DNA of 44,248 bases from a virus. The position numbers were made by a program, and so were the translations under genes. This document shows, one piece after another, positions 24,858 through 44,248 of this stretch. The stretch's first letter is position 1. The number at the start of each line of letters is the position of its first letter. The notes beneath the pieces are model-generated. The model saw only the letters and a list, made by a program, of their open reading frames with translations, did not search any database and had not been told where the DNA came from. The stretch is from IMG/VR virus record IMGVR_UViG_3300021057_000017, positions 1 through 44,248 of that record, one strand, 5' to 3'.

Positions 24858-24895
24858 GTGGGTTACTAGACCGTGCTAAAATCATAAGTCTCTTT

Positions 24896-25931: not shown

Positions 25932-26177
25932 CTAAACACCCTCCTTTGTGCGTGTCTTGAATCCTTCGAATAGTTCTAAATCCTCTTCTTTTGGCATTAG
26001 AGAGAAGCCGCTGACTGAATAAACAATTCCTGGTGGAACGCCAAAAAACTCCTCAAACTTAATATGAATCGATTCAATCCGTCCTATTGATACCGCTTTA
26101 TGTGACGGATTAAAGTGAAACTCGTCATTCATTATTACAATATCCCCTATCTTAAACTTTGGTTTCCGCGCACCCAT
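25932..26177 (-). CDS. Hypothetical protein
   Basis: 81-aa track ORF. Confidence 0.5.
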   Translation of the reverse strand: MGARKPKFKIGDIVIMNDEFHFNPSHKAVSIGRIESIHIKFEEFFGVPPGIVYSVSGFSLMPKEEDLELFEGFKTRTKEGV

Positions 26178-26180
26178 GAT

Positions 26181-26543
26181 TTAACCCTCTGCCTTAGTGA
26201 TAGCCTGTTTAAGCTGATGAATCAAATTCCCAGCACCATTAAACGGGGATTCTTCGCACCCTTCGGACGGATGCTTTGAATAGTCGTAGCGATCTTCTAA
26301 TTGTAATAGCGCCTCTTTACACGCCTCTAACAGCGCCTCATGATTATTCACCGCTTTGACGATGTATGCGGCGTTTGCGTTAATTAAGTCCTTATCATCA
26401 GCGATTGTTCCCCATTCAACACCACAGTCAGCGATAATATGACCTTGTTCGGAATAAACCGCATAGACTTTTTCGTTCGATTCATCTTTCCACATTGTCA
26501 TTAACAGCTTCCACGGTGTAGCAGTATGTTCGCGCACCCTCAT
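26181..26543 (-). CDS. Hypothetical protein, paralog of 27499..27819
   Basis: 120 aa. TATPWKLL...NANAAYIVKAVNNHEALLEACKEAL parallels TPGPWEVY...KNAALIAAAPELLEALI. Confidence 0.55.
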   Translation of the reverse strand: MRVREHTATPWKLLMTMWKDESNEKVYAVYSEQGHIIADCGVEWGTIADDKDLINANAAYIVKAVNNHEALLEACKEALLQLEDRYDYSKHPSEGCEESPFNGAGNLIHQLKQAITKAEG

Positions 26544-26905
26544 TCTCCTTTAGGCTCATACTTAGCTTTTAACCTTGCAAGCTCGTCTCTTTCTGTTTTC
26601 TCTTCCATTTCCTTGCGTAGCCGCTCATTTTCTTTTCTATTGGCATCAGCTTCCTGGTGATTGCGCCACCATAGCTGCATTTCAAGAGAGCAGTTTTTTA
26701 CATTAATGCTTTGGAGTTTGACACATAGCTCTGATACTTTGGTATCTAGAGTTTCCTTATTAGCTCTGCAATAGGCTCTATTGTCATAGCCATCCCATGC
26801 TTTTTTGTCTATATTCTTGCCTTCAAGCTCATCGAGTAGCTGGTAAACACGGCTCAGTTCAATTTCTAGGCCGTTAGCTTGTAAATAATCAGAATTACAA
26901 GGCAT
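26540..26905 (-). CDS. Hypothetical coiled-coil protein
   Basis: 121-aa track ORF with an ATGA overlap. Confidence 0.5.
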   Translation of the reverse strand: MPCNSDYLQANGLEIELSRVYQLLDELEGKNIDKKAWDGYDNRAYCRANKETLDTKVSELCVKLQSINVKNCSLEMQLWWRNHQEADANRKENERLRKEMEEKTERDELARLKAKYEPKGE

Positions 26906-27028
26906 TTATTTATCTCCTTTAGGCGCGGTTTGCGCCCCATCTATCGTTAAAGCACCACAAAAGGCTAGGTGTTCGTACCAGTCTTTGCGTGATGCAAATA
27001 TTTCGTTAGGACAATTAAGACACTTCAT
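26906..27028 (-). CDS. Cys-containing microprotein (40 aa)
   Basis: MKCLNCPNEIFASRKDWYEHLAFCGALTIDGAQTAPKGDK. Its stop abuts the next ATG. Confidence 0.4.
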   Translation of the reverse strand: MKCLNCPNEIFASRKDWYEHLAFCGALTIDGAQTAPKGDK

Positions 27029-27201
27029 TTTGAGTACACCTTTTCCGCTGAATCATAGATTTCTTTTACGCCGCCATCAGCTCTTAATTCTGAAACGTGC
27101 CATTCTCGCTCTCGCCCATCATCAGCTATGACTTTCGCCCAGCCTTCGGCATCAATCGAGAGAATCTTTGTTATTGGAGTCTCGAATCGTGTCCAGATCA
27201 T
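27025..27201 (-). CDS. Hypothetical microprotein (58 aa)
   Basis: MIWTRFETPITKILSIDAEGWAKVIADDGREREWHVSELRADGGVKEIYDSAEKVYSK, with AAGGGGGA upstream and an ATGA overlap. Confidence 0.45.
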   Translation of the reverse strand: MIWTRFETPITKILSIDAEGWAKVIADDGREREWHVSELRADGGVKEIYDSAEKVYSK

Positions 27202-27238
27202 CTATTCCCCCTTTTCTTTACCCGCGCGGAGCGCACTG

Positions 27239-27403
27239 TTAATAACGCTTTGTGTAAACTCTTTCAGAACAAGTATTGCAATACCAGGCTCTTAGACTTG
27301 GCGTATGGCTTTGCCCCTCTTGCCAGTAATGCGTATGTTTCATCGAGCGTGTAAACCATCCAACGCACCATCCAACAACACTACCGATAACAAAATCAAG
27401 CAT
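27239..27403 (-). CDS. Microprotein with N-terminal TM helix (54 aa)
   Basis: MLDFVIGSVVGWCVGWFTRSMKHTHYWQEGQSHTPSLRAWYCNTCSERVYTKRY. Confidence 0.4.
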   Translation of the reverse strand: MLDFVIGSVVGWCVGWFTRSMKHTHYWQEGQSHTPSLRAWYCNTCSERVYTKRY

Positions 27404-27506
27404 TGCGATTTAACTCCCTCAACGCGCACACAAAATCTGACCAGTCCTCTATCACGTTAGTTTGGTACTCCCTCCATAGCCTGTCAACCTGCTCAGTCCT
27501 AGACAT
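27396..27506 (-). CDS. Hypothetical microprotein (36 aa)
   Basis: MSRTEQVDRLWREYQTNVIEDWSDFVCALRELNRNA, with 8-nt overlaps at both ends. Confidence 0.3.
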   Translation of the reverse strand: MSRTEQVDRLWREYQTNVIEDWSDFVCALRELNRNA

Positions 27507-27819
27507 TGCGGCCCTCGGCTTTGGCTATTACACCACATTGAAAACAGCTCTCACCCTCTTCGGTACGTCCTTTTGCGCACTCTTCAGGATCGTGCGATAG
27601 GATAAGAGCCTCCAAAAGCTCCGGCGCGGCGGCGATTAGAGCGGCATTTTTTTCGTCTAGCGCATGAGGATAATAAGTTTCATTGTTGCAGATAGTCTCC
27701 CCACTATCTTTTGATCTAACGCCGACACCTTTGCACTCGTCAGCTTCATGTGAACGCTCGAAATAATAGACTTCCCACGGTCCAGGCGTATGTCGCGCAC
27801 CACTCTGTTTAGTCTCCAT
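27499..27819 (-). CDS. Hypothetical protein, paralog of 26181..26543
   Basis: 106 aa with HTPGPWEV...NAALIAAAPELLEAL, a motif pair seen in many phage hypothetical proteins. Confidence 0.55.
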   Translation of the reverse strand: METKQSGARHTPGPWEVYYFERSHEADECKGVGVRSKDSGETICNNETYYPHALDEKNAALIAAAPELLEALILSHDPEECAKGRTEEGESCFQCGVIAKAEGRNV

Positions 27820-27840
27820 TAGCGTATCCTCCTTAGTGCT

Positions 27841-28245
27841 TTAAACTTCAATCCCTGCCCGATCAGCTAGCCGTCTAGCTGTTTCCTCGAACGCGTACCA
27901 CGCCATAAGGTTTTCAAACTGATCGGTCCCGCCTACATTCTCGGTCCCGTTAAGAATGGCAAGCATTTCAAATACGTTCTTATGCCCAACTTCTTCGGCC
28001 TGTTCGATTGCCAAATCCCATATATCGTCTTTATGGTCTCTATAGAAGGCTATCGTGTCGGAGTAGTAGATAAGATCACTTACAAAACCGGACGCGCACC
28101 CGCCATGAAACAAGTCCTCAAGAACGCCCTTGATACCGCTATCATAATCAGTGGCCTTTTCATTCAGCCAATTAAAAACGAATTTCTCCAGATCGTTTTC
28201 TGTGCTGACTTCCAATTTAGTTACGACTTTGGTATTCTTTTTCAT
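27841..28245 (-). CDS. Hypothetical acidic early protein
   Basis: 134 aa with GAGGAGA upstream. Conserved-looking core GGCASGFVSDLIYYSDTIAFY. Function unknown. Confidence 0.55.
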   Translation of the reverse strand: MKKNTKVVTKLEVSTENDLEKFVFNWLNEKATDYDSGIKGVLEDLFHGGCASGFVSDLIYYSDTIAFYRDHKDDIWDLAIEQAEEVGHKNVFEMLAILNGTENVGGTDQFENLMAWYAFEETARRLADRAGIEV

Positions 28246-30231: not shown

Positions 30232-31848
30232 ATGGAAGTGAATATCAAACAAGAAGTCAATCCAGTCTCATCCCCATCTCCAGATGCCCCCGCAACTGTA
30301 AATAAAGACCCGTACGCGAATGTTTTGTATAGAACGAAGGTTCTATACCATGCCCTGAATAAACCAGAGCTCCAGGCCATACAAATCGCAATGTGCCGAA
30401 AAGATGTTCTTTATTGGGTCAACACCTTCTGCTCAACCTACAATCCGAGGAAAACCCCATCCGTGATTCCATTCATCACGTATGAGTACGAAGACAAACT
30501 CATTCTCGACCTCGTAGACCACATTAGAGGCCAAAAGGATCTTCTCATTGATAAGTCAAGGGACATGGGGGTTACGTGGTGCGTTCTTCTGGCCTTTACG
30601 TGGTTATGGCAGTTTGGAGACGAGGGATCGGATTTCTTAGTAGGAAGCCGTAAAGAGCAGTACATCGACGTTATGGGCAATATGGACACCCTTCTTGAGA
30701 AGGTGCGCTTTCTTATCCGAAACGAGCCTGTTTGGTTAAGGCCCAAAGGCTTCGATTTTAAAACCCACTCCAATTACCTAAAGATCGTGAACCCTGAGAC
30801 CAAAAGCACCATTACGGGAGAAGCCACGAACAATAACTTCTCTAGAGGCGGTAGGCGTAGAGCTATCTTTTTTGACGAATTTGCCTTCTGGGAGTGCGAT
30901 CAAGCTGCGTGGCGTGCTTCTGCCGACTCCACTAACTGCCGGATTGTGGTCTCTACCCCATACGGGTTCAATAACCAGTTTGCGAAATTAAGACACTCAG
31001 GCTCTATTGACGTGAGGTCTCTTCACTGGACACTTCATCCAGAGAAAGACAAGGCCTGGTACGACAACGAGTGTAAGCGCAGAAATAACGACGCCGTTGA
31101 AATCGCGCAGGAACTGGACATTAACTACGAGGGCTCAGAGGAAGGGGTGCTTTTCGAGTTCTCAGAGCTTAAAGGCGCGGTTAAAAATGAGCCTCTAATG
31201 AGCCCGGACCGGAAAGTCGTCGCACTCGACCCCGCAGGCGAAGGAGATGATGAGGCGGTCTTTTACGTCTCAAATAACGGAAACATCGTAGAGCGCAAGT
31301 TCATCGCAAAATCAAACGACATGGAGCTTGCCGCAGAGAGTGTGAGCCTCATCAATAAGCACAAGGCCCAGGTTTTTATCGCAGACGCTATTGGTTCCGG
31401 TGTTATCGGGATAGTCACGAACCTACTCGGCAAGAATGAAAGAAACGTTAAGATCATCGCCTTTAAGTCCTCAGAGAAGGCCAAAGACCCCGTTAAGTAC
31501 TACAACAGGCGCGATGAGGTCTACCACCAGGCCGCCCAGCAGATGAAGTCCGGCAATGTTCAAGTCGATGATGACTACACGCTCATGAAGCAGTTAAACG
31601 CCACTAAGTACAAAACAGACAATGGCAGAATCTACATTTCGCCCAAAGAGGAGATTAAGGCGGCCGTCGGCTCCTCCCCTGACCGCGCTGATGCCTGGGT
31701 TTTGGCGGTAGAAGGGCTTAAATACACCCACTCTCTACGCGAAGTTTTATCCATCGACGCTTTCCGTCAAGGCCCGGGTTTTCGGGATCTCCAAGGGGTC
31801 CGGAGCGGCGAAGAGTACGGCGACTGGCAAGATACCCTTGATAACTAA
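30232..31848 (+). CDS. terL: Terminase large subunit
   Basis: 538 aa. Walker A-like LIDKSRDMGVTW and Walker B AIFFDEFAFWE are present. The C-terminal RNaseH-like nuclease block is VVALDPAGEGDDEAVFYV...ADAIGSG...DRADAW. Confidence 0.9.
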   Translation: MEVNIKQEVNPVSSPSPDAPATVNKDPYANVLYRTKVLYHALNKPELQAIQIAMCRKDVLYWVNTFCSTYNPRKTPSVIPFITYEYEDKLILDLVDHIRGQKDLLIDKSRDMGVTWCVLLAFTWLWQFGDEGSDFLVGSRKEQYIDVMGNMDTLLEKVRFLIRNEPVWLRPKGFDFKTHSNYLKIVNPETKSTITGEATNNNFSRGGRRRAIFFDEFAFWECDQAAWRASADSTNCRIVVSTPYGFNNQFAKLRHSGSIDVRSLHWTLHPEKDKAWYDNECKRRNNDAVEIAQELDINYEGSEEGVLFEFSELKGAVKNEPLMSPDRKVVALDPAGEGDDEAVFYVSNNGNIVERKFIAKSNDMELAAESVSLINKHKAQVFIADAIGSGVIGIVTNLLGKNERNVKIIAFKSSEKAKDPVKYYNRRDEVYHQAAQQMKSGNVQVDDDYTLMKQLNATKYKTDNGRIYISPKEEIKAAVGSSPDRADAWVLAVEGLKYTHSLREVLSIDAFRQGPGFRDLQGVRSGEEYGDWQDTLDN

Positions 31849-32135: not shown

Positions 32136-34271
32136 ATGGAATACAGAGAAGAAAAGAAAAAAGCGTTCATCAAAAAGCTTGCCGCGAAAGTCCGACAGGA
32201 CGATCAAGACAGGCAGGTATGGAAAGATAAGCAAGTTGTCGCCCACAACTCGCGTTTAGGTTTAAGACGCAGAACTAACCGCCCCTACCCAGGTGCCGCA
32301 GAAGTCCCGATTCCAATCACAGACAAATTCATCACAAAGCTTAAAAGCATGTTTGTGTCCGTTGCGACACTCATGCGTAAGCAAATCATCGTGACCCTAG
32401 ACGATGACGAAGTAAACACCCCCGAAACAAAAGCCTCCGCCGAGAAGATAGAACGCGCCCTCAATAACCTAATCCGTAAGCGCGACTTCCAGTGGACCAA
32501 GAAAGTCACCCTCTTCGTTGACTACTTTCTCGAAAACGGCCAGGCGATTTTTAAGATCATCGAAAAGTTCTACACAAAAACCTCAAACGTCGAAGTTGAT
32601 ATGGATAACTTCACAGATGAGCAGAAAAAACAGTTAAAGACGCTCAAAAAAGATGAGCTTCGCATCGTTATCGCCAATCGTCACGAAATGGACCTTGATG
32701 ACAAAGACGATCTTAAGCAAATCGACAAAGCCATTGAGCAGATAAAAGCTGGCAAGAAAATAATCAAGTTCACCAAAAAGACCGCCTACACCGAGCCCAC
32801 CGTGCTCCCCGAGAGAGGTCTCCGTATCATTGTCCCCTCCACTGGTACGGAGACCCAAAGGCTTCCACGCATCACCCATGACATGTGGATGACCTACCAG
32901 GAATTAAGAGACAAAGCCGACAAAGGGATTTACGACAAATCTGTGGTGGATGCCCTAGATCCGGATGCAGGAACCTCCGATAATTCGGTTACAAATAATT
33001 CCTGGTCTAATTCGGAAGGGGTGTCCACCCTCTCTTCTAGAAGCGAGCTCTTCAACGTTCGGGAATGCCAGACTTGGTATGAAGGAAAAAAATGGGTTTT
33101 TACGTGGATTGAAGAATCGGGTGATGGAGGACAGATTGAAAAAGAAGACGGCGAAACGACAAACGACATCAAAGTCCTTCAAGACATCGAACACCCATAC
33201 GACCACGGAATGTGGACCTACGTCAAACACGACTACGAGCTCAAAAACACCCGCTGGTACGCCTCACGCGGGGTGCCGGAAAAAATCAGGGGCCTGCACC
33301 AAACAATCGAAAAAATGTACAACACTCGTCTCATCCGAGACGAATACAACAACGCCCCAATGTGGCGTGTATCCAAACAGCTCGGCTGGTCAGGCGATGA
33401 AATTAGAATGCGCCCGGGTCAAGTTGTCCAAGCTGAAGCAGGAGAGATTGAACAGATTAACAAGGGAGTCACAGCGGATGTCTCAAGCGAACGGCTGGAG
33501 CAGCAGGCCAAGGCCTATGCGGAAGAGTATCTCTCTATCACTGATTTTAGTAATCGCAACGCTGTTAACCCTGGCGGGAGTCGCACTGCTACTGAAATTC
33601 AGGCCATAAACCAAGCCTCAACCCGTCAGGTGAATATGGATATCGCCCTATTCCTTGACACTCTAAGCGAAGTCGCAAACCACCTCTACCTCATCCTAAA
33701 GCAAGGGGTCCAGACTCCACGCAAGGTTGCGGGCGTCATGCTTGCCCCAGAAGACTTTCTCGTCAAGGTTAGCGTTGCGTGGGTTGGCTCACTCGACGCT
33801 ACCGACAACGATCTTCAGATGCAACGCGCCCAGGTAAGGCTCCAAACGTTAGCGCAGATAGGCCTTCCTCTTGGCGTGGTCACTCCAACCAATATCTACA
33901 ACATGCTTTCGGACATCCTCGACAAGGACCCTGATGTCGAGTCCCCCTCTCGCTTCATCACCTCCCCAGAGGATGTCCAGCTTTCTGAAATAGAAGAACA
34001 GCAATCCGAAATCATCAGAAACATGAACGGGTTCGATGTGCCCGTTCACCCTGATGACAATGACGCGGTTCACTTACAAGTTATCGAAGAGTTTATGAAC
34101 ACCCAGGTGGGTCAGGCAAAGCTACAGGCAGATCCAAACTTCGCCGCCCTGCTTGAGAAACACGCAAACATGCACATCCAATCGGAGGCATTAAAGAATG
34201 GCATCAAAGCGCAAAACTCGCAAGGTGCACAAGGTCAAAAAGGCGCAAGCCGGATTAAAAAAGCGGGCTGA
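32136..34271 (+). CDS. Portal protein
   Basis: 711 aa with AGGAG upstream. The call rests on position between terL and scaffold/capsid and on size. No motif was verified. Confidence 0.65.
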   Translation: MEYREEKKKAFIKKLAAKVRQDDQDRQVWKDKQVVAHNSRLGLRRRTNRPYPGAAEVPIPITDKFITKLKSMFVSVATLMRKQIIVTLDDDEVNTPETKASAEKIERALNNLIRKRDFQWTKKVTLFVDYFLENGQAIFKIIEKFYTKTSNVEVDMDNFTDEQKKQLKTLKKDELRIVIANRHEMDLDDKDDLKQIDKAIEQIKAGKKIIKFTKKTAYTEPTVLPERGLRIIVPSTGTETQRLPRITHDMWMTYQELRDKADKGIYDKSVVDALDPDAGTSDNSVTNNSWSNSEGVSTLSSRSELFNVRECQTWYEGKKWVFTWIEESGDGGQIEKEDGETTNDIKVLQDIEHPYDHGMWTYVKHDYELKNTRWYASRGVPEKIRGLHQTIEKMYNTRLIRDEYNNAPMWRVSKQLGWSGDEIRMRPGQVVQAEAGEIEQINKGVTADVSSERLEQQAKAYAEEYLSITDFSNRNAVNPGGSRTATEIQAINQASTRQVNMDIALFLDTLSEVANHLYLILKQGVQTPRKVAGVMLAPEDFLVKVSVAWVGSLDATDNDLQMQRAQVRLQTLAQIGLPLGVVTPTNIYNMLSDILDKDPDVESPSRFITSPEDVQLSEIEEQQSEIIRNMNGFDVPVHPDDNDAVHLQVIEEFMNTQVGQAKLQADPNFAALLEKHANMHIQSEALKNGIKAQNSQGAQGQKGASRIKKAG

Positions 34272-35038: not shown

Positions 35039-36028
35039 ATGACAAATGAAGCAAAGGTAGTCAGCGAGAGTCCTGAGGCAATTCCTGATGTTTTGACGGA
35101 AACGCCCGAATCCACTCCTGGTAGTGAGGCAATTAACAGCCGTGACGCGATCAGAAAGTCCATTGAAGAGCGCGTGATTGAAGAAAACGAGAAGCCAAGC
35201 AAAGAGGTTAAAGAGGAAGTTCCTGTAGAGGCTAAGAAAGAAGAAGAGTCTAAGCAGGAAAAGCCTGTAGAAACCTCAGATCTGGCTATCGCGGAGAAGG
35301 TCAAAGAGCGCATCCAGAAGCGCATCGACAAGGAAGTTGCAAAGCGTAAGACCCTTGAAGAACAGCTTGCTGAAAAGGAAGCCGAGCTTCAAGCCTTACG
35401 CAACTCTAAGCCAGAGGCCGAAACAAAGAATGTCGAGCCCACCATCGAACAGTGTGAGGCTTACATTATCAAGTGCCGGGAAGAAGGCGACGTTAAAAAC
35501 GAAGTTGCCGCAATGCGCTATCTCGTGAAACTTGAGAAAGAGGCCGCAATTAAGGCTGTTAAAGAGGAGCAGGAAGCTCGGGCGCGCCAAACGACCGAAG
35601 TCACTGCAAAGCAACAAGCCGATTGGATTGCACTTAATCGGGATTACGAATCTCCCGAACCTGATCTCAATCTCGCCAACCAAAATGGACTTCTCTACAG
35701 AGAGGCCATGAAGCTTTTTATGGACCCGGATCTTAGGGAGGTTTATTCAGACTCCGACAGAATCCAGGGATTCCGTAGAGCCGTGCATGACTCTTATCGC
35801 TACATCATGGAAAACGGCCTCCATAAGAAGTCTCCCAGTAACACCGTTGAGACCCTAGACACGACTCCAAGAGTGAAGCCGAAAGCGGTTCTCGCAGACC
35901 CATCGACTGACTCTGCTGAGGAAACGGGACGAACGGTCTCTAAAAACCTATCAGACGCCGAAAAGGTGAAAGAAGAAATTTTAGCTAGAAGGAAACTTCG
36001 GTATCACCCGAAAAGCCTTCAAACCTAA
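35039..36028 (+). CDS. Scaffolding protein candidate
   Basis: 329 aa. It is E/K-rich and helical (EEVPVEAKKEEESKQEKPVE...LEEQLAEKEAELQAL) and lies immediately upstream of the capsid gene. Confidence 0.6.
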   Translation: MTNEAKVVSESPEAIPDVLTETPESTPGSEAINSRDAIRKSIEERVIEENEKPSKEVKEEVPVEAKKEEESKQEKPVETSDLAIAEKVKERIQKRIDKEVAKRKTLEEQLAEKEAELQALRNSKPEAETKNVEPTIEQCEAYIIKCREEGDVKNEVAAMRYLVKLEKEAAIKAVKEEQEARARQTTEVTAKQQADWIALNRDYESPEPDLNLANQNGLLYREAMKLFMDPDLREVYSDSDRIQGFRRAVHDSYRYIMENGLHKKSPSNTVETLDTTPRVKPKAVLADPSTDSAEETGRTVSKNLSDAEKVKEEILARRKLRYHPKSLQT

Positions 36029-36038
36029 GGAGCTTTAA

Positions 36039-36968
36039 GTGGGACAGCAGTTATTTGCCACTAATTCTTTGGGTGGCTTCCTAACCAATAACTCTCTCTC
36101 TAAACAGCTTCGGTTCCGTTCGCAGACGATGCAACGGTTCCGTCAGTTCTGTGATGACGAGAGCTACGCGGGTAAAAACCGTGGTAACAAGGTGTTCTTT
36201 GACAAAATCTCGAACATCTCTACCGCTGGTGGCACCCTTATTGAAACGGAAACCATCCCGAAGCGTAATTTCACGATCACCCAAGGGACGATGACGATCA
36301 CGGAGTACGGTAACTCAATTCCGTTCACCGCGAAGTTAGAGAACCTTTCGGATATGGATGTCTCGGAGTCCGTTCGTACCGTTCTTATGAACGATATGAA
36401 AGTTGTTCTGGACTCTGCGGCGGCCACGCAGTTTAAGACGAACGACTACATCGCCACGATCACGAATACGGCGACAACCACGTTCGGCACTGCGGGTCTT
36501 GCTCTTGCTACGGCAGGTGCCAACATGTCCGACAAAAACGTCCGCGACATCGTGGATCAGATGAAAAGACTGAATATCCCTACCCGGGATAACGATGAGT
36601 ATGTCTGCATCGGTTCCACGAACTCGATCCGGGGTCTTTATGACTTCTTCGAGTCGAAAGCGCAGAACACCGTTATGACCCCGCTCTATCGCGGCGAAAT
36701 CGGCTCGTACTACAAGTGCCGTTTCGTTGAGGAAACGAACTTCCTCTCAAATGCCGATGGATCGAATGGTCTGTATGGTGAAGCTGTGTTCTTTGGTGCG
36801 GATGCGGTTCGCCAGGGTATTGCGCTCCCAGAAGAAATCCGGGTTGCGATCCCCACGGACTACGGACGTGACAAAGGCATCGCTTGGTACGCCCTCCTTG
36901 GATTCCAGCAGGTCTGGGATTTCAGCGCGGATGGTGAAACTAGAATCATCGTTGTCGATTCCCTGTAA
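36039..36968 (+). CDS. Major capsid protein
   Basis: 309 aa with a GTG start and AAGGAG 6 nt upstream. It follows the scaffold-like gene and is itself followed by a small protein and a strong hairpin. An HK97-type fold is assumed, not verified. Confidence 0.75.
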   Translation: MGQQLFATNSLGGFLTNNSLSKQLRFRSQTMQRFRQFCDDESYAGKNRGNKVFFDKISNISTAGGTLIETETIPKRNFTITQGTMTITEYGNSIPFTAKLENLSDMDVSESVRTVLMNDMKVVLDSAAATQFKTNDYIATITNTATTTFGTAGLALATAGANMSDKNVRDIVDQMKRLNIPTRDNDEYVCIGSTNSIRGLYDFFESKAQNTVMTPLYRGEIGSYYKCRFVEETNFLSNADGSNGLYGEAVFFGADAVRQGIALPEEIRVAIPTDYGRDKGIAWYALLGFQQVWDFSADGETRIIVVDSL

Positions 36969-36986: not shown

Positions 36987-37394
36987 ATGTCTAAAGGTGG
37001 CAGAAGCTATAGCGATCCGTCTTACGGGTCTATCAAACAGCTGTCTTTTGAAACTGTGACGGCTGGAACTCGTGCGACGGCTCTGGTTGATACGGTGAAA
37101 GTGATGAACCCCATCACTGTTACCGATTGGAACATGTCGAATATGACCCTCGGAACGGGTGGTTCTTCGCAGTGGGTGCTTGCGGCTACTTCAGCCAATG
37201 GCACTGCGGCGCTTGGAACCATCATTTTCGTTGGTACACATGCGGCAGGTATTACGATTGACGGTTCTGTTACGGAGACCACAATCGCGGCGGGCGGCAG
37301 ATTAGATTTCTATTCTGTCCTCTCGACGGCGGCTGGTCTTACTGTCAAACCGACAGTCAAGTATCGTGAAGCGTTCGACTCTAGCGATAACTAA
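36987..37394 (+). CDS. Small S/T/G/A-rich head-module protein (decoration protein candidate)
   Basis: 135 aa with AGGAGAG upstream. It is beta-rich and is the last gene before the hairpin and cassette. Confidence 0.45.
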   Translation: MSKGGRSYSDPSYGSIKQLSFETVTAGTRATALVDTVKVMNPITVTDWNMSNMTLGTGGSSQWVLAATSANGTAALGTIIFVGTHAAGITIDGSVTETTIAAGGRLDFYSVLSTAAGLTVKPTVKYREAFDSSDN

Positions 37395-37437: not shown

Positions 37438-37460
37438 AAAAAACCTTAAAGAAAGGTTGA

Positions 37461-38717
37461 ATGTTTAAAAAAGTAATTTTTTGCAGAATCTGCAATAGCA
37501 CTAACCTCGAAAGATACCTCGATTTTGGCTCGCATCCTCTCGCAAACGATCTCCAAGAAGGCGTAAATCTCTACCTTAGAAAATTTAGTCTCGAAGTTCT
37601 TATTTGCGAAAACTGCTTTCTTTCGCAGCTAAGCGTTGTGGTGGACCCTGACATTATGTTCAAAGAATACGCCTACCACTCCTCTATTTCTCAAACGTTC
37701 AAAGACCACTGCTACCAGATGGCTCTTAAGCTAAAGGCCGAGTTCCAGTTCGAGTACCCGCTTGTCGTGGATATAGCTTCAAATGACGGATGCCTACTCA
37801 ATGAATTTAAAAGGGCGGGTTATAAAAGATTCTTGGGTTTCGAGCCAGCAACCAACCTATCCGCGCAACCCTACGGATGGATAGACGGAAAGCCTGGAGA
37901 TGAGCTTGGGATTCCGGTTGTAAATTCTTTCTTTACGGAAAAGATCGCAATGTCTACCCGTGGGGATAAAGCAGGCCAGGGCGCAAGCATCGTAACGGCC
38001 CAAAACGTTTTCGCTCACGTAAATGATCTCCATGACTTTTTAAGAGGAGTTCATTGGATGTTAGATGACAATGGGGTTTTTATAGTAGAAGTCCCATATC
38101 TTCCAAATCTCATTGAGAATAATGAGTTCGACACCATCTACCATGAGCATATTTCGTACTTTCTCCTCAAGCCTCTTGTAAGGCTTTTTAAAGACTGTTC
38201 CCTCCCCATTTTCAGAGTCGAGAAATACCCTATTCACGGCGGTTCTATTCGTATTTATGCATCCAAAGATTTTTACCAACTAGAAGACTCCGTTGAACTG
38301 TTTCTGGACGAGGAAGATCAGGAAGGCTTTTATGACATCAATATCTACAGAGCTTTTGCCAAAAGAGTCGAAAAGACAAAGATCGAGTTTCAAACGCTCA
38401 TGGAGCTTCTCTATCGATCAAATAAGAAAGTGATGGGTTATGGGGCCTCAGCCAAAGGCATCAGCCTTATAAACTACTGCGGCATACCAAAAGAATATAT
38501 CCACTCCATCGTGGATGACACGCCCGCAAAACAAGGGAAGTTGACACCCGGAAGCTATGTACCCATTGTCGATTTCTCGCATTTCGATAAAGAGAATCCT
38601 GATTTTATCCTTCTTTTGGCCTGGAACTTTGCCAAAGAGCTGATAGAAAAAACCGCGCACCACAAAGAACGTGGAGCCTATCACCTCGTCCCTATCCCCG
38701 AGTTTAAGATCGTATGA
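37461..38717 (+). CDS. NDP-hexose C-methyltransferase (TylC3-type; Zn-ribbon + SAM-MTase + C-terminal domain)
   Basis: 418 aa. Features in order: CRICNS...CENC zinc ribbon, FKEYAYHSSISQT, VVDIASNDG (SAM motif I), VFAHVNDL, YHEHISYF, HGGSIR, GYGASAKG. This is the full signature order of the sugar C-methyltransferase family. Confidence 0.85.
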   Translation: MFKKVIFCRICNSTNLERYLDFGSHPLANDLQEGVNLYLRKFSLEVLICENCFLSQLSVVVDPDIMFKEYAYHSSISQTFKDHCYQMALKLKAEFQFEYPLVVDIASNDGCLLNEFKRAGYKRFLGFEPATNLSAQPYGWIDGKPGDELGIPVVNSFFTEKIAMSTRGDKAGQGASIVTAQNVFAHVNDLHDFLRGVHWMLDDNGVFIVEVPYLPNLIENNEFDTIYHEHISYFLLKPLVRLFKDCSLPIFRVEKYPIHGGSIRIYASKDFYQLEDSVELFLDEEDQEGFYDINIYRAFAKRVEKTKIEFQTLMELLYRSNKKVMGYGASAKGISLINYCGIPKEYIHSIVDDTPAKQGKLTPGSYVPIVDFSHFDKENPDFILLLAWNFAKELIEKTAHHKERGAYHLVPIPEFKIV

Positions 38718-39700
38718 AAACCTGCTTTATCTCTCGTCTTGGCGGAGCAGGCGATTTGCTCCACGCCGCGCACCTACCGCGCCTCATTAAAGAACATTAC
38801 GGCGTGACTCACCTGACCTGGGAAACCAACTACCACGGGATGCACATTTTGGAAGGCAACCCCTACATAGATAATTTGATCTTTCTTGATGTAAATAAAA
38901 TTACCCATAACCGGATGGTTAAGAATCTTGAGTGGGCCCGCCAGACTTATGACTTAGTATTCGACTTCTCAAACACCATCGAAAAAGCCTACTGCACCAA
39001 TGAGAATGACTGGCGTTACTACACCTCCGATAGGTGGCGTAGAGAGAACCTTGGAAAGAACTACTACGATGTTATGACTGATGCGGCCGGACTCCCTGAA
39101 TCTTATTATGGAAACCGAGGGCAACTCTATTACACCAACGAAGAGCACAAATCTTGCCAGGAATGGATTGATAAAAAGCATGAAGTGTATGAAAAGGTTA
39201 TTTTGGTCAATCTCTCAGGCTCCACGCTTCACAAGAAGTTTATTCAGGCTGAAAGCGTCTGCCGGAAGATCCTTGAAAAATACCAAAAAGTTCTAATCAT
39301 CCTGACAGGAGATGAGTTTTGTAAAGAGCAGGTTTTTGAGCATGAGCGCGTCATCTCTTACGTCGGGAGTAAGACAAACGGCTTTCGATCAGTAGCTTTA
39401 AAGTGTAAGTACGTCGATCTTACAATCAGTCTTGAATCAGGCCTAATACTCGTCGCGCATTCCTGGGACGCGCCCGCCTTACAACTCCTAACCGCCGCCT
39501 CCTGGGAAAACCACATAAAGTACGCCAAGAACGCCTATTGGCTACAGGCTCCAGTCCCCTGCTCTCCATGCCATAAAAACCCAAGAGATTATTATGGGTG
39601 CCCGATTCGAGACAAGCACCCCGAATGTATTTGGTTTGACGAAAACGTAATCATGCAAAAGGTTGAGGAAGCCCTTGAGTATAGCCAAGTCCTTGCCTGA
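38714..39700 (+). CDS. GT9-family (heptosyltransferase-like) glycosyltransferase
   Basis: 328 aa with an ATGA overlap. N-terminus ISRLGGAGDLLHAAHLPRLIKE, then NLSGSTLHKKF, then a C-terminal Cys cluster CSPCHKNPRDYYGCPIRDKHPEC. Confidence 0.6.
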   Translation: MKTCFISRLGGAGDLLHAAHLPRLIKEHYGVTHLTWETNYHGMHILEGNPYIDNLIFLDVNKITHNRMVKNLEWARQTYDLVFDFSNTIEKAYCTNENDWRYYTSDRWRRENLGKNYYDVMTDAAGLPESYYGNRGQLYYTNEEHKSCQEWIDKKHEVYEKVILVNLSGSTLHKKFIQAESVCRKILEKYQKVLIILTGDEFCKEQVFEHERVISYVGSKTNGFRSVALKCKYVDLTISLESGLILVAHSWDAPALQLLTAASWENHIKYAKNAYWLQAPVPCSPCHKNPRDYYGCPIRDKHPECIWFDENVIMQKVEEALEYSQVLA

Positions 39701-40106
39701 CGTTCACCCATCCTTCATTCAAGATTGTCCCCTCTGCGGACGAGCAAACCGGGTAGTTGTGAAGGGCACCTACAAGCTAGGAGACAAACTAGAGCTTCAC
39801 CCTGACATGGGGTATTCCTTCTGTAACTGTAAAGCCATCTTCTACACGCGCCCCGAAAACGTCTTGGAACCTGCAAGCTATGAACCCGACGAAAACGGAG
39901 TTATTACACTCCCAGACCCATTCTTCGCCTGGCCCAATCCTTACGACTTCCACTACTGGGATGTCAGGAAATACGGAATTATTTGGGACATAACCTCACT
40001 TTGCGAGCACCTCGAATCTAAAGGCTACGAAATCCTATCATCCGAAAGGGATTTTGATGTCTACTCAGAAACTCCTCAGCACTTTCATATCAAAGTGAAA
40101 ATATGA
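39663..40106 (+). CDS. Hypothetical zinc-ribbon protein (possible methyltransferase remnant)
   Basis: 147 aa with CPLCGR...CNC. It overlaps the upstream gene by 38 nt. No SAM-binding motif was seen. Confidence 0.4.
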   Translation: MRKPLSIAKSLPDVHPSFIQDCPLCGRANRVVVKGTYKLGDKLELHPDMGYSFCNCKAIFYTRPENVLEPASYEPDENGVITLPDPFFAWPNPYDFHYWDVRKYGIIWDITSLCEHLESKGYEILSSERDFDVYSETPQHFHIKVKI

Positions 40107-40903
40107 AAAAGATCTGCGTCATTATCCCAATGTACGGCAAGGAAGAATACACAAGAAAGTGTATTGAGTACTGCCGTAAAAATGCCGGGATTGACCACCA
40201 TATCCTCGTTGTAGATGACGGCTCAGAGACTCCCTATTACGACCCGCACACTGAAACCCTAAGAATCGAGGAAAACTCTGGATTCACAAATGCAGTTAAT
40301 CAAGGCATTCTCCACTGCTCAGATCACTTTGACTACATCCACCTATTAAATAACGACACCGAGCCTGAGCCTGATTTCCTGAAAATTCTTTACGATTTCA
40401 TGGAAGCCAATCCAGTTGTGGGAATTGCAGGTTCTGCCAGAATCCTCGAAACAAACGCGCCCCACTGCATTGAACTCTACGGAGCCGATCTTATCCGTGG
40501 ATTCCAAGTCTGCACCGATGGGAATATTTCAAACGAAGTTATCTACACCCACTGGATTCCACTCTGCTCCGCACTCCTAAGACACGAAATGATCCGCTAC
40601 ATAGGTCTTTTAGACAGACGAATGAAGATATGGTGCTCGGATAATGACATGTGCATACGCGCTAACTTTAGCGGCTGGAACGTAGCCTTATGCGTTAAGT
40701 CCAAGGTTAAACATAAACACGCCGTAACCACCGACAGCATCCAGAAAGAAAGAAAGTACTCACCCGAGAACGACCAAAGGATCTTGATTGAGAAGATGGC
40801 GGGCATGCAATACGCAGAGCTTATGAAACAACTGCCTCTCGATGCCGAACAGCAGGTGTACGGAAAGCTTGAGTTTTCGACCTACAAAAAGGAGTTAAAG
40901 TGA
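40103..40903 (+). CDS. GT2-family glycosyltransferase
   Basis: 266 aa. KICVIIPMYGKEEYTRKCIEYC...ILVVDDGSE...GFTNAVNQGI...LLNNDTE is a canonical GT-A/GT2 N-terminal layout. Confidence 0.85.
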   Translation: MKKICVIIPMYGKEEYTRKCIEYCRKNAGIDHHILVVDDGSETPYYDPHTETLRIEENSGFTNAVNQGILHCSDHFDYIHLLNNDTEPEPDFLKILYDFMEANPVVGIAGSARILETNAPHCIELYGADLIRGFQVCTDGNISNEVIYTHWIPLCSALLRHEMIRYIGLLDRRMKIWCSDNDMCIRANFSGWNVALCVKSKVKHKHAVTTDSIQKERKYSPENDQRILIEKMAGMQYAELMKQLPLDAEQQVYGKLEFSTYKKELK

Positions 40904-41883
40904 AGCTCCTAATTCATAGGTCTGGGGCGTTTGGAGACTGTCTCATAATTACCCCCATTCTTCGCTACCTGCACAACAAGGGGCACGAAATTGTTCTTAG
41001 ATGTAACGAGCGAGGGGCGCAGATATTTAAGAATAACCCGCACATCAAAACTTTGATTGAGGAGCCAACAGATTCCGTAAAAGTGGACATTCTTGGAGAC
41101 CATCTTGAGTGGCTCAGAAAAAAGTATAAGTGCGAAAAGTTAATCGACTTCTCTGAAAGCATCGAAGTGGCCCTTTCCCAGCACCCACGCTCCCCAAACT
41201 ACAAACTGCCGAAAAATGAACGTTTTAAGTTGTTTAACAGAAACTTCTATGAGTTTACCTTTGAGTGGGCCAAAGAGGACTGGCAGGGCCGCGATTTAAA
41301 GCCTGAGCTTTTCCTGGAAGAATCAGAAATAGAAGAAGCCAGAAAGTACCTAAAAAAAGAAGCTTTCAACATCCTTATCGGCATGTCCGGTTCTGGAACC
41401 AATAAGACATGGCCTCACACCGAAGAGCTTTGCGCTCGAATCCTTGACCAGATCCCAAACGCGCACATCATCACCGTTGGAGACGCCAGGGCCCAAATGA
41501 TAGAGCCCCAAATGGAGCGCATTACAAACTTGTCAGGCAAAACCCCAATGCGTATAAGCATGGCCCTCACAGGCGTTGTAAACCTAGTTATTTCGCCCGA
41601 CACAGGCCTTTTGCATGCTTCCGGATGCTACCCAACCCCTAAGATTGGGATTTTGGGGCACAACACGATTGAGTGCATCACCAAGCACTTTGAAAACGAT
41701 TATTCGGTAGAGTCCGACCCAAGTCTCGCTGAGTGTTCCCCATGCTTTTTCCTCGTTTATAACAAGGGGCTTCAGTGTCCTTTAAACGATGACTACGGCG
41801 GGGCAAGCCTCTGCATGGCAGACGGCATACCCTGTAAACGAGTATTAAGCCAGGTCTTAAATGTCTACTCCAGAAAAAACTAA
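40900..41883 (+). CDS. GT9-family (heptosyltransferase-like) glycosyltransferase
   Basis: 327 aa with a GTGA overlap. LLIHRSGAFGDCLIITPILRYL, IGMSGSGTNKTWP, ISPDTGLLHAS and C-terminal ECSPC...C...LCMADGIPCKRVLSQV match the WaaC/WaaF-type pattern. Confidence 0.75.
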   Translation: MKLLIHRSGAFGDCLIITPILRYLHNKGHEIVLRCNERGAQIFKNNPHIKTLIEEPTDSVKVDILGDHLEWLRKKYKCEKLIDFSESIEVALSQHPRSPNYKLPKNERFKLFNRNFYEFTFEWAKEDWQGRDLKPELFLEESEIEEARKYLKKEAFNILIGMSGSGTNKTWPHTEELCARILDQIPNAHIITVGDARAQMIEPQMERITNLSGKTPMRISMALTGVVNLVISPDTGLLHASGCYPTPKIGILGHNTIECITKHFENDYSVESDPSLAECSPCFFLVYNKGLQCPLNDDYGGASLCMADGIPCKRVLSQVLNVYSRKN

Positions 41884-42625
41884 AGAAGATCTAAAAGTAT
41901 CGGTTGCCGAGTGCCCTATTTGTACTTCTTTCTGTCAGCACATGTATTACATGGAGGATGCCAAAAGCCGCAGGAAGTCAAAATGGCACTCCTGCGCGTG
42001 TGGAGTCATTTTTCAGAAAGATAAGCCCGAAGGCGTTTATGACGCGGCTTACCTCAAGAAAGAGTCAGATCCTGGCGAAAAGTACAGGCTCGCCGCCCAA
42101 TACCCAGTCAGAATTTATGCCCCACTTATCGAAGAGCTGACCTACGGGCGAAAGGCCCTCGTTGTCGGCACACCTACATTTAGGCAGGTAGAAGCCTTTA
42201 AAGACAGGGGCTGGGTTACTTACTCCATCGACAAGAACCTTGAATACCTACCCTCCTCCAGACACTTTCAAGGCGACTTTGAAACCTACGATTTTGGCGA
42301 CCAGAAGTTCAACCTAATCTGGATGTATAGCGTTCTTGAGTGTTTCTTAAATCCTAAGGAAACTCTAAAAAAATGCTTTACCTTGCTACCCGAAGATGGG
42401 ATTCTTTTCATAGCAACACCAGATACTGATTTCGTTTATACGCGTTCCTCCGCCGCTTTTGTCCACTGGCGACCCGAATACAACAATGTCATGTGGAATA
42501 AGCGAGCACTGACCTCCCTCCTAGAATCCCTAGGCTTCCAAACGATAATGTGCAGGCGAAACTTAGAACAGAGATTCCCTGCCGTTGATGACGTTCATGG
42601 AATATTCCAGAAGCGTTATTACTAA
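41861..42625 (+). CDS. Class I SAM-dependent methyltransferase with N-terminal zinc ribbon
   Basis: 254 aa with CPICTS...CACG. KALVVGTPT is a degenerate motif I. FNLIWMYSVLECFLNPKETLKKCFTLLPEDGILFIATP is the typical post-II/III block. Confidence 0.6.
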   Translation: MSTPEKTKEDLKVSVAECPICTSFCQHMYYMEDAKSRRKSKWHSCACGVIFQKDKPEGVYDAAYLKKESDPGEKYRLAAQYPVRIYAPLIEELTYGRKALVVGTPTFRQVEAFKDRGWVTYSIDKNLEYLPSSRHFQGDFETYDFGDQKFNLIWMYSVLECFLNPKETLKKCFTLLPEDGILFIATPDTDFVYTRSSAAFVHWRPEYNNVMWNKRALTSLLESLGFQTIMCRRNLEQRFPAVDDVHGIFQKRYY

Positions 42626-42638: not shown

Positions 42639-42809
42639 GTGTACCCAAGAGGCACTTACCCCAGAACCGAACAGCATAAGCAGATCACCTCTGCTGGCCT
42701 AAAGAAATTTTATGCTGACGGCGGCAAGGTATGGTCTGAGGGTAAGAAGTTCTCAGACACCCATCGCGCACAAGTAAGAAAACCACAGGAGGTGCTTTAC
42801 GGCAACTAA
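42639..42809 (+). CDS. Small basic ORF (56 aa), possibly the N-terminal part of a frameshifted gene
   Basis: GTG with AAGGAG 5 nt upstream: VYPRGTYPRTEQHKQITSAGLKKFYADGGKVWSEGKKFSDTHRAQVRKPQEVLYGN. The TEQHKQITS and KKFSDTHRAQV segments loosely resemble NUMOD3-type repeats. Confidence 0.4.
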   Translation: MYPRGTYPRTEQHKQITSAGLKKFYADGGKVWSEGKKFSDTHRAQVRKPQEVLYGN

Positions 42810-43257
42810 AACTATTACCATCGACACAGCAGAATGGCTTTATCCTGACAGATTTGGCATTACCCACGAAGTAAATAACGCTCAAACCTTCACGTTTGAA
42901 CTCACCGATGGCGGCGCTTCAGCCGTCACTTACGCCCAGAACAACGCAACTTCAGTCACCTGTACAGACGGTTCGCGCATTACTTTCCGGCCCCAGGTAG
43001 GCCTTTCACAGCCTGGCGCGGAAGTCGCTAATGGCAATAGACGCACCTTTGGCCCTACGGCTGACGCTCAAGATGCTACGGCTGTATATGGGCTCGCTGG
43101 GGAATTTGTGGCTGAGTGCCCTGTTTCTGGTGCTATTCAGTACTGGAAGCCAGTGCACATGACCGTCGATGATGTTGATACCCCAACCGCAATTAGTGGT
43201 CGATTTGAAGATCAGTTCGGGAATACGTTTACCTGGACTACGGTTACGGTGTCCTAA
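42778..43257 (+). CDS. Beta-rich structural-module ORF lacking any canonical start codon in its first ~105 codons
   Basis: 159 open codons run from the TAA at 42775 to the TAA at 43255. The first ATG/GTG/TTG in frame is a GTG at about codon 107. AGGAGG (42787-42792) lies 6 nt before an in-frame ACG (42799). The stop overlaps the next ATG (TAATG). Confidence 0.5.
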   Translation, partial: ENHRRCFTATKTITIDTAEWLYPDRFGITHEVNNAQTFTFELTDGGASAVTYAQNNATSVTCTDGSRITFRPQVGLSQPGAEVANGNRRTFGPTADAQDATAVYGLAGEFVAECPVSGAIQYWKPVHMTVDDVDTPTAISGRFEDQFGNTFTWTTVTVS

Positions 43258-43433: not shown

Positions 43434-44248
43434 TGACAAATGACACCCTAAAACGCATCTGTGTACGTGCTCAGGCGATGGTGCAAAACACCTCGACTAG
43501 CACGTCCAATGCCAATGACATTCTCCCCAAGGTTAAAGATTGGGTCCGCACACGATACGACAGGATCTTAAGGAGCTTTCCTTGGGGAGAGCTGACACGT
43601 ACCTACAATCTTTCCGTCACAGCCTCAACCCGCGATTACTCGCTCCGTTACGATCTTGAGCAAATCATTAAGATTTGGGACACGACAAATGGAACCGAGT
43701 TAATCGAAAAGTCTATTCAAGACCATATCCGGTTCACCGCTATAAATCTTGAGGTGTCTGGAAATGTCCAAACAGGATCACCTGAGACCTACGTTGACAT
43801 TGGGTCAAAATCAGTCTCAGCTCTTCTTTCTACAGCAGATCAGGTTCAAGTTCTCTCAACCTCAGTGTCTGATGTCACCCCTAAAATTATTCGTATTACA
43901 GGCGAAGTTAGCGGAATGCTTGTTTCAGAAAACCTGACCCTTAACGGCACGTCAGCGGTTACATCCACAAACACCTATGATTCTGGCTCCGAGCTTATAG
44001 TTTCAGCCGGAACTTCAGATGGCACCTTATCCGACCTTTCGGGCGTCGTTACGGTTAGAGAGCAAGACACAACCTCAAATGTCTTAGCAAAGCTTGCTCC
44101 AAACGAACGCGCCCCCTTCTACAAGTGGATTAGGCTCTCACCAACCCCGGCAAAAGCAATAACAGCCCAAATCTGGTACAAGCGCCGCTGGATGCCTCTT
44201 CGTGATGACAACGATGTCCCGCTTATTCCCTGCGCCAATGAGATTGTG
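43433..44248 (+). CDS. N-terminal part of wrap-around structural ORF (continues at 1..325)
   Basis: The ATG at 43433 is followed by 272 open codons to the window end. The frame continues through the terminal repeat to the TAA at 323-325. Confidence 0.6.
   Translation, partial: MTNDTLKRICVRAQAMVQNTSTSTSNANDILPKVKDWVRTRYDRILRSFPWGELTRTYNLSVTASTRDYSLRYDLEQIIKIWDTTNGTELIEKSIQDHIRFTAINLEVSGNVQTGSPETYVDIGSKSVSALLSTADQVQVLSTSVSDVTPKIIRITGEVSGMLVSENLTLNGTSAVTSTNTYDSGSELIVSAGTSDGTLSDLSGVVTVREQDTTSNVLAKLAPNERAPFYKWIRLSPTPAKAITAQIWYKRRWMPLRDDNDVPLIPCANEIV
44122..44248. repeat. Second copy of the 127-bp terminal overlap
   Basis: Identical to 1..127. Confidence 0.97.

Follow-up and report, generated by a model that had tools for sequence, protein, structure and literature searches.

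What would a phage gain from encoding sugar-modifying enzymes between the genes for its capsid and those for its tail? The question is raised by the IMG/VR viral record IMGVR_UViG_3300021057_000017, analyzed here over its full length of 44,248 nucleotides (the window), in which a cassette of six open reading frames (ORFs), O1 to O6, encodes predicted glycosyltransferases and methyltransferases downstream of the major capsid gene. An exact direct repeat of 127 nt at both ends (positions 1–127 equal 44122–44248) identifies the assembly of this uncultured phage as circular and complete, at 44,121 bp. We give an even chance to the leading interpretation, that these enzymes are made alongside the head proteins and attach methylated or branched sugars to a protein on the virion surface; decoration of virion proteins with such sugars was raised in the initial annotation of this DNA. 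Gene position, synteny across two morphotypes, gene fusions, the solubility of the enzymes, a variable set of tailoring enzymes, conserved active-site residues, a likeness to an enzyme that acts on a protein, the surface-like character of a neighboring 135-aa protein (p135), and scans that detected no integrase, DNA-hypermodification genes, or defense systems support it. A methylated sugar coat on the particle is probable because relatives of this phage keep the cassette beside the capsid gene.

Glycosyltransferases and methyltransferases of the cassette

The six ORFs were confirmed on the plus strand (Table 1), with genuine ATGA/GTGA overlaps at 38714, 40103, and 40900, as initially described, and overlaps of 38 and 23 nt at the remaining two junctions. 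No transmembrane-like segment was found in any of the six proteins, all of which are soluble; the acceptor is therefore placed in the cytoplasm, where virions assemble. Pfam profiles, matches to solved structures, and the paralogy of O2 and O5 upheld the enzyme classes of the initial annotation, namely a TylC3-type methyltransferase, glycosyltransferases of families 9 and 2 (GT9 and GT2), and a second S-adenosylmethionine (SAM) methyltransferase.

O1 is matched by Methyltransf_13, Methyltransf_23, and Methyltransf_14 (PF08421, PF13489, and PF08484; E 6e-47, all above cut-offs) and has the three-part architecture of TylC3 and TcaB9, with a zinc domain, a SAM domain, and a C-terminal Methyltransf_14 domain. 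Solved sugar 3-C-methyltransferases match it over its full length (4rv9, E 8e-69, residues 4–417; TcaB9 3ndi, 3e-65; 5t64, 9e-59), and both the N-terminal CxxC...CxxC and the DTIYHEHISY (YHEHxSY) motifs align. The zinc cysteines and the catalytic YHEH motif presumably have the roles that they have in TcaB9, and we infer that the substrate is a nucleoside diphosphate (NDP)-4-keto-6-deoxyhexose.

O2 and O5 are GT9-like paralogs that share 26% identity by BLASTP (E 7e-23). The Pfam GT9 profile (PF01075, Glyco_transf_9) recognizes O5 (1.4e-10, 41.3 bits vs. a cut-off of 22) and leaves O2 unmatched, as it does the fused distant members described below; O2 has a weak TIGR02193 match (1e-5, below cut-off). 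Against the NCBIfam equivalog models for lipopolysaccharide (LPS) heptosyltransferases, TIGR02193 and TIGR02195, scores of 24.7–30.2 bits fall far under cut-offs of 134.6–185.3. The AlphaFold2 model of O5 (pLDDT 94) adopts the GT-B, two-Rossmann GT9 fold, and its Foldseek matches are led by 3tov (2.5e-15), the heptosyltransferase HepII (1psw, 1.8e-14), and WaaC (2.5e-11), with 6dfe and 2h1h also among the top matches. The protein glycosyltransferase TibC (4rap) follows at 3e-8, with a TMq of 0.64–0.65 and the lowest root-mean-square deviation.

In an alignment of 18 diverse members of this GT9-like family, the residues R7, G12, D13, E89, R108, G164, K169, C279, C282, C293, and C305 (O5 numbering) are invariant, and O2 keeps R7, G12, D13, K169, and the four Cys positions. 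D13 belongs to a GD motif (residues 12–13) and K169 to the GSxxxK motif of the C-lobe of O5; by motif alignment, they are presumably equivalent to D13 and K192 of WaaC. A DTGxxH motif is kept in O5, and ESGL takes its place in O2-type paralogs. Judged from the alignment and the model, the GT9-like enzymes are likely catalytically competent. It is highly unlikely that they have instead become noncatalytic assembly or structural proteins, such as a chaperone or a ring for head completion, and that the rest of the cassette is an unrelated moron: the ESGL substitution, the loss of the methyltransferase core from O3, and the dodecameric rings built by TibC (PMC4358343) would suit such a role, but all 18 diverse members keep the catalytic Asp and Lys, and sugar-nucleotide tailoring enzymes with intact active-site motifs always co-occur.

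O4 is a GT2 enzyme (PF00535; E 3e-17, 63.5 bits vs. a cut-off of 23.3) whose sequence contains VVDDGS and NNDTE, the DD and xxD motifs. It lacks a hydrophobic segment, is 45–74% identical to its counterparts in relatives, and has a weak match to phrog_841, ‘GtrB-like’ (3e-5). O6 carries an N-terminal zinc ribbon ahead of its methyltransferase domain, and the short O3, initially described as a zinc-ribbon orphan, is instead a truncated paralog of it. O3 can be aligned with O6 over the N-terminal CxxC ribbon and over the last third of the protein, but it has no SAM-binding core. In its place, L004 and L009, two relatives, encode a complete Methyltransf_23 protein of 279–285 aa; seven relatives keep the short form. 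The partial alignment and the full-length protein in the same slot identify O3 as a conserved, core-deleted paralog, which on its sequence is probably not catalytic. Its start codon is TTG, and the JGI gene call is shorter (115 aa). With O3 a paralog of O6, the cassette can be described as two pairs of a GT9-like enzyme with a methyltransferase or methyltransferase-like protein, together with a GT2 and a C-methyltransferase.

Persistence of the cassette beside capsid genes

The close relatives compared are IMG/VR contigs with a capsid protein 76–80% identical to that of the window, along with one NCBI contig, L079. In every one of them with enough sequence (L003–L006, L008, L009, L011–L014, and L079), the cassette occupies the same position between capsid and adaptor genes. 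The cassette proteins are 45–82% identical across more than ten divergent relatives, and all ORFs are intact; O2 ranges more widely, from 35% (L003) and about 49% (L004 and L009) to 59–82% elsewhere. These comparisons, which answer the call for a search of the insertion point in related phages, indicate that the clade inherited the cassette from its ancestor, contrary to the insertion first supposed. Its composition was also read as AT-rich; the measured GC content is 0.458 vs. 0.467 genome-wide, at the 22nd percentile of equal-sized windows, and 2.7 points below that of the upstream head genes. Recent horizontal acquisition of the cassette is ruled out by this ordinary composition and the conserved synteny. 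Nor does it look like a fragment of a host LPS locus captured without expression signals, given intact, translationally coupled genes conserved at the identities above.

The accessory tailoring enzymes vary among these relatives. O1 is missing from L004 and L009, where a further GT2 accompanies the full-length methyltransferase; L006 and L008 encode an additional CmcI-family rhamnosyl O-methyltransferase (E 3e-52); and a TylF-type O-methyltransferase is found in more distant loci. Gene content that varies in this way is expected where diversifying selection acts on a surface glycan.

The association extends well beyond this clade. In about 50 distant viral contigs, with capsid proteins 40–45% identical to that of the window, a GT9-like gene lies 1–3.5 kb past the capsid gene and just before an SU10-type adaptor gene, mostly encoding a single protein of 460–550 aa in which a Methyltransf_11 domain precedes the GT9-like domain (an MT-GT9 fusion). 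A scan of a genome collection with one genome per prokaryotic species recovered 25 loci, and in 21 of them the capsid gene precedes the GT9-like gene in this same arrangement. The isolate Pseudothauera rhizosphaerae CC-YHH848 contributes one locus (contig22, about 64–81 kb), and metagenome-assembled genomes (MAGs) of Accumulibacter, Rhodocyclaceae, and Janthinobacterium contribute others. Two more of the 25 loci, on betaproteobacterial MAG contigs with siphovirus-type gene sets, L101 (5400–8969) and L103 (5387–8963), place an MT-GT9 gene directly after a 650-aa protease-capsid fusion (phrog_617), in the order portal, protease-capsid fusion, MT-GT9, tail terminator, minor tail protein, and tape measure. 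Because these are siphovirus-type loci with a different capsid type, the GT9-like gene follows the capsid gene in two morphotypes. Among 50,697 INPHARED phage records, megablast with the cassette returned no match, and tblastn with O5 and the fused MT-GT9 returned no GT9-like match, only cyanophage matches to the methyltransferase domain.

A profile search of 1.84 billion cluster representatives (50% identity) put the family at 341 or more clusters at E<=1e-30 and at 1,783 members at E<=1e-10. Fusions in the family comprise GT9 with a C-terminal, O6-type zinc-ribbon methyltransferase (P0280 and P0298), MT-GT9, and GT9-MT-GT9, which ties GT9-like and methyltransferase activities together. Multidomain relatives include P0256, P0272, P0280, P0298, and P0304; chains measure 586–591 aa for GT9 with zinc-ribbon methyltransferase, 856 aa for GT9-MT-GT9, and 779–1038 aa where MT-GT9 is followed by further glycosyltransferase-like and methyltransferase-like regions. 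In several distant loci (L075, 7034–8778; L076, 131–1875; L092; L093; L095; and L105), the capsid gene itself matches in two pieces about 0.4–1 kb apart, with the break near residue 180 in L075 and L076, where both pieces were mapped; the interrupted alignments suggest an intron or homing-endonuclease insertion.

Some members probably reside outside viruses. In the last two of the 25 loci, MT-GT9 homologs, 34–36% identical, lie on large alphaproteobacterial contigs next to TauD, MFS, and TauE genes (L100, 6282–9005; L102, 6311–10159), with no phage genes detected around them; because these contexts look cellular, the family is not strictly viral. Reading function from these cellular homologs proved uninformative, given such neighbors. 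Their metabolic settings do fit a cytoplasmic target other than the virion, which might be a small molecule, a host protein modified for takeover or anti-defense, or a phage protein that is not part of the structure, for example the scaffold. The solubility of the enzymes also agrees with such a target, and host proteins are substrates of some cytoplasmic GT-B enzymes of bacteria, EarP among them. Nevertheless, we think such a target rather improbable: host-takeover genes are normally early and the early arm of this phage is on the opposite strand, lasting adjacency to the capsid gene across lineages would go unexplained, and a variable sugar-tailoring set suggests an exposed glycan.

Remodeling of host LPS or another envelope glycan is the main rival, though an unlikely one. 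Working as analogs of LPS-core heptosyltransferases, the GT9-like enzymes, together with the GT2, would modify LPS or a lipid-linked acceptor on the cytoplasmic side of the inner membrane, either changing a receptor and so blocking superinfection or keeping progeny from sticking to debris. HepII, WaaC, and 3tov are the nearest solved structures, there are weak NCBIfam matches to heptosyltransferases I and II, and WaaC-type enzymes likewise lack transmembrane segments. The distant relatives, moreover, come from Gram-negative assemblies (mostly MAGs, some of them probably binned phage contigs, and one isolate), where lysogenic conversion is conceivable because some relatives may be prophages. 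However, the NCBIfam scores of 25–30 bits stand against equivalog cut-offs of 135–185, in both morphotypes the gene is tied to the capsid gene rather than to lysogeny or early modules, and Pfam, which has limited sensitivity for this phage since it missed even the terminase, found no flippase, GtrA/GtrC, acetyltransferase partner, or integrase in the genome. LPS modified late in the lytic cycle also has scant time to reach the surface, and we know of no Cys4 finger in WaaC or WaaF.

Candidate acceptors and genome setting

If the target is a virion protein, the capsid protein and p135 are the candidates to which gene context points. The HK97-type capsid protein is 76–80% identical in the close relatives and 40–45% in distant loci that also have a downstream GT9-like gene. 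p135 contains 26% Ser+Thr, many of them invariant, and its homologs (at least 120) are 63–87% identical, which makes it better conserved than the enzymes. Its predicted jelly roll resembles small phage virion proteins and fiber knobs by Foldseek (E 1e-5), with weaker likeness to TNF-like folds and to a capsid chain of cyanophage Pam1, and profile comparison relates it, at 80–87% probability, to proteins of about 134 aa encoded just after the capsid gene in many of the distant loci. Taking model and profile together, p135 is probably a capsid decoration or surface protein. The repeat proteins encoded at 7938 and 9085 had also been proposed as targets; we found no evidence in favor of either, and neither has homologs in the loci compared. 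The protein at 7938–8180 is encoded on the minus strand, in a short minus-strand island within the tail gene region. It is 80 aa long, its N-terminus resembles a signal peptide or lipobox, and it contains SRQNLTGGYT three times, with an N-L-T sequon in every copy. ORF 9085–9675 encodes a 196-aa product with no assigned function, in which a 30-nt tandem repeat of 3.4 copies (9402–9503) yields KDVPVNNAIV-like 10-residue repeats.

Two hairpins separate p135 from O1. The first, a 14-bp stem-loop already noted in the initial annotation, is real by RNA folding (−25.6 kcal/mol for the 66-nt spacer), and a hairpin of 12–15 bp with unrelated sequence stands at the same position in 10/10 relatives examined, with a T-run in one (L011). 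It is probably an attenuator or RNA-stability element that divides the genes for abundant head proteins from those for the enzymes. The second, ACCTT-aaaga-AAGGT, pairs the Shine-Dalgarno sequence of O1, and most relatives examined (L003–L006, L009, L013, L014, and L079) have a comparable anti-Shine-Dalgarno hairpin ahead of their first cassette gene. Both would fit lower expression of the enzymes than of the head proteins. In L004, a tRNA-Thr(TGT) gene (8492–8564) lies between the p135 homolog and the cassette; the window has no tRNA.

From this arrangement, we propose that the cassette may be a late-expressed, cytoplasmic glycosylation module of the head gene block. O1, probably with an RmlC-like epimerase encoded elsewhere in the phage and host RmlA, RmlB, and RmlD, would produce a 3-C-methyl-6-deoxyhexose nucleotide from host dTDP-4-keto-6-deoxyglucose. 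The two GT9-like enzymes and the GT2 would then attach sugars to a surface protein of the virion, most likely the capsid protein or the p135 jelly roll, either before the particle assembles or while it does so. The methyltransferases would tailor the glycan, with O6 methylating the transferred sugar and O3 serving as a non-catalytic partner of O2, and the p135 hairpin and the sequestered ribosome-binding site would hold the enzymes well below the levels of structural proteins. The benefit may be shielding, or changed properties of the virion surface; mycobacteriophage glycans shield virions from antibodies, and to our knowledge, glycosylated phage particles have been shown solely in mycobacteriophages. 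What the analysis shows is gene content, folds, active-site motifs, synteny, fusions, solubility, and variable tailoring enzymes; which protein is modified, from which donors and by which pathway, when the genes are expressed, and what the phage gains are inferred from context.

Several points weigh against glycosylation of the virion. The function is deduced wholly from context, and the acceptor is not pinned down to one protein. p135-like proteins are missing from many distant loci that retain the GT9-like gene, so the capsid protein is its only constant neighbor. Solubility is also compatible with a lipid-linked acceptor because LPS heptosyltransferases are themselves soluble or peripheral, and Foldseek places these enzymes and 3tov ahead of TibC. 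TibC itself was missed by a single-sequence search with O5 and by a profile search of PDB sequences; its likeness to O5 is therefore drawn from fold and motif. The N-terminal beta-barrel of TibC (residues 1–97) is also missing, as O5 and O2 begin at the glycosyltransferase core. The presumed cellular homologs L100 and L102 lie outside phage settings, and promoter and terminator scans gave signals no better than chance, so that late timing is assumed from position.

Along the plus strand, the genes run in the order terminase, portal, probable scaffold, capsid, p135, hairpin, the six ORFs, a conserved 152-aa gene, a 58-aa ORF, adaptor, and nozzle, so the cassette does not directly precede the tail genes as had been stated. 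The 152-aa gene, whose product is probably a virion protein, was overlooked by ORF finders and by the JGI gene caller. Homologs are present in 10 close relatives, including L003, L004, L006, L008, L009, L011, L012, L014, and L079, and are 37–67% identical in the nine compared by tblastn. They start with ATG in 6/7 relatives inspected and with TTG in L003, after an AGGAG-type Shine-Dalgarno sequence; the start in the window is ACG (AGGAGGtgcttt ACG GCA ACT AAA...). The sister contig L080, separately assembled from another sample, has the same ACG, which therefore reflects non-canonical initiation or a population-wide loss of the start codon. Between the two assemblies, the upstream cassette is identical, 42660–42755 is the sole diverged stretch, and about 2.2 kb downstream contain 13 mismatches. 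A 56-aa ORF (42639–42809) lies between O6 and the 152-aa gene and is missing in relatives, where these genes are about 20 nt apart; its NUMOD3-type-like repeats suggest a homing-endonuclease remnant.

Table 1 Features of the window discussed in the text
Feature	Position	Strand	Basis or remark
Terminase	30232–31848	+	
Portal	32136–34271	+	
Probable scaffold	35039–36028	+	
Major capsid protein, HK97-type Phage_capsid_4	36039–36968	+	Pfam PF25209, phrog_1357
p135, 135-aa protein, 26% Ser+Thr	36987–37394	+	AlphaFold2 all-beta jelly roll, pLDDT 82
14-bp stem-loop	37401–37437	+	Directly past p135 stop codon; no U-tract
Small hairpin	37442–37458	+	Pairs Shine-Dalgarno of O1
O1, 418 aa, NDP-hexose 3-C-methyltransferase (TylC3/TcaB9/KijD1 type)	37461–38717	+	Pfam and PDB matches
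O2, GT9-like glycosyltransferase, paralog a	38714–39700	+	BLASTP paralogy to O5
O3, 147 aa, core-deleted paralog of zinc-ribbon methyltransferase	39663–40106	+	Alignment to O6
O4, soluble GT2 (GT-A) glycosyltransferase	40103–40903	+	Pfam PF00535
O5, GT9-like glycosyltransferase, paralog b, C-terminal Cys4 finger	40900–41883	+	Pfam PF01075
O6, class I SAM methyltransferase with N-terminal zinc ribbon	41861–42625	+	Pfam Methyltransf_23, 8e-12
Conserved 152-aa gene	42799–43257	+	Between cassette and adaptor
58-aa ORF		+	Between 152-aa gene and adaptor
SU10-type adaptor	Crosses window end / circular junction	+	
Nozzle protein, 723 aa	325–2496	+	
Small GNAT	4030–4323		Pfam scan
RmlC-like dTDP-4-dehydrorhamnose 3,5-epimerase fold protein	14726–15133	−	Pfam PF00908, E 1.1e-15; early arm

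Two genes outside the head block had been singled out in the initial annotation, and Pfam scans confirmed both, the RmlC-like epimerase and the small GNAT. The RmlC-like gene, 22 kb from the cassette, encodes the sole phage sugar-nucleotide enzyme besides O1 in the Pfam scans of the window ORFs and is a possible partner of O1. The same low-sensitivity scans found no nucleotidyltransferase, dehydratase, flippase, or polymerase, in agreement with the earlier reading, and its conclusion that the cassette falls short of a full O-antigen cluster and has to rely on sugar nucleotides of the host is supported.

The gene content also bears on a further alternative, glycosylation of the phage DNA as a base hypermodification against restriction, which we regard as very improbable. 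Phage GT-A and GT-B enzymes, sometimes with methyltransferases, do add diverse sugars to DNA (bioRxiv 10.1101/2023.12.21.572611). However, within the limited sensitivity of Pfam, no enzyme that forms 5-hydroxymethylpyrimidines was detected in the window, be it a thymidylate-synthase homolog, a C5-cytosine methyltransferase, or a dioxygenase of the TET/JBP type; the cassette is part of the head block and does not lie with nucleotide or replication genes, and the GT9 fold is unlike that of the T4 beta-glucosyltransferase (T4 beta-GT). PADLOC returned zero defense-system matches on the window.

The early arm (14379–28245, minus strand) consists of small ORFs, none above 258 aa, and a DNA polymerase, primase, helicase, or integrase was undetectable there by Pfam. 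The early-arm scan batch, which included some plus-strand ORFs, yielded only HTH, HNH, DUF7222, and DPBB lytic-transglycosylase domains, not assigned to individual ORFs. In the tail region, the nozzle protein contains a Laminin_G_3 (concanavalin-A-like lectin) domain at residues 104–266, and L079 encodes an additional 228-aa Laminin_G_3 protein (12229–12915) immediately 5′ of the adaptor gene.

Comparison with known glycosylation systems

Returning to glycosylation of the virion, a broader proposal can be advanced more tentatively, as a possibility. A large TibC-like family of protein glycosyltransferases, found mostly in phages and prophages, paired with or fused to methyltransferases, and locked to capsid genes, may coat the HK97-type capsids of apparently Gram-negative phages with methylated and, in this clade, C-branched sugars; the glycan would vary among close relatives as in an arms race, and this would be the first capsid glycosylation outside actinobacteriophages. 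If true, virion glycosylation would be widespread in environmental phages by way of a different enzyme family, protein glycosyltransferases like the bacterial autotransporter heptosyltransferases (BAHT) would extend from virulence factors to viruses, and the family would be an enzyme source for methylated, C-branched sugars on proteins. The relative in the cultured strain Pseudothauera rhizosphaerae CC-YHH848 makes the question testable.

Among known systems, O-antigen conversion by GtrABC or Oac shares only a GT2-family enzyme with the cassette (the weak phrog_841 match of O4); here, the genes lie inside a structural operon, and no GtrA/GtrC or integrase was found by Pfam at its limited sensitivity, nor membrane segments in the cassette proteins. 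O1 is a full-length homolog of TylC3, TcaB9, and KijD1 with the zinc site and catalytic motif, although its phage lacks the 2,3-dehydratase, aminotransferase, and ketoreductase that usually accompany such enzymes in antibiotic deoxysugar pathways. WaaC, WaaF, and 3tov (GT9, PF01075) are the best structural matches and share the GD, GSxxxK, and DTGxxH motifs with O5; the phage family differs from this group in its extra Cys4 finger, its head-module context, and its sub-cut-off NCBIfam scores.

A link to BAHT such as TibC and AAH (eLife 2014), proposed initially, gains some support. Both groups are soluble and cytoplasmic and have in common a GT-B, GT9-related fold, a catalytic Asp, and a phosphate-binding Lys (D110 as catalytic base and K230 in TibC; PMC4358343). 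The Cys4 cluster of O5, CxxC-x10-C-x11-C (C279, C282, C293, and C305), starts 110 residues past the Lys and resembles the iron finger of TibC, C339-x2-C342-x15-C358-x11-C370, which starts 109 residues after K230 and serves in dimerization and in contact with the protein substrate (PMC4358343). The resemblance in sequence pattern is suggestive and no proof of membership in BAHT. A match to TibC or AAH was found at the level of fold and not of sequence, the phage enzymes lack the N-terminal beta-barrel and have their GD motif at residues 12–13, and distant members have a methyltransferase domain where TibC has the barrel. In addition, their neighbors are capsid and adaptor genes instead of an autotransporter, and they are usually paired or fused with a SAM methyltransferase.

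Our literature searches turned up no account in which phage capsid genes are linked to a gene of the GT9-like or heptosyltransferase kind. A functional parallel is found in mycobacteriophages, whose glycosyltransferases are reported to decorate virion proteins, namely capsid and tail-tube subunits (Freeman et al. 2023, Cell Host Microbe, as summarized in PMC12619734). Phage-encoded glycosyltransferases acting on virion proteins are also the working model proposed here from gene context. The mycobacteriophage system belongs to hosts in the Actinobacteria, whereas the placeable relatives of the present phage are in Gram-negative bacterial assemblies. We know of no report of paired GT9-like and methyltransferase genes in that system, and the genes described here differ from it further in being embedded next to the capsid gene.

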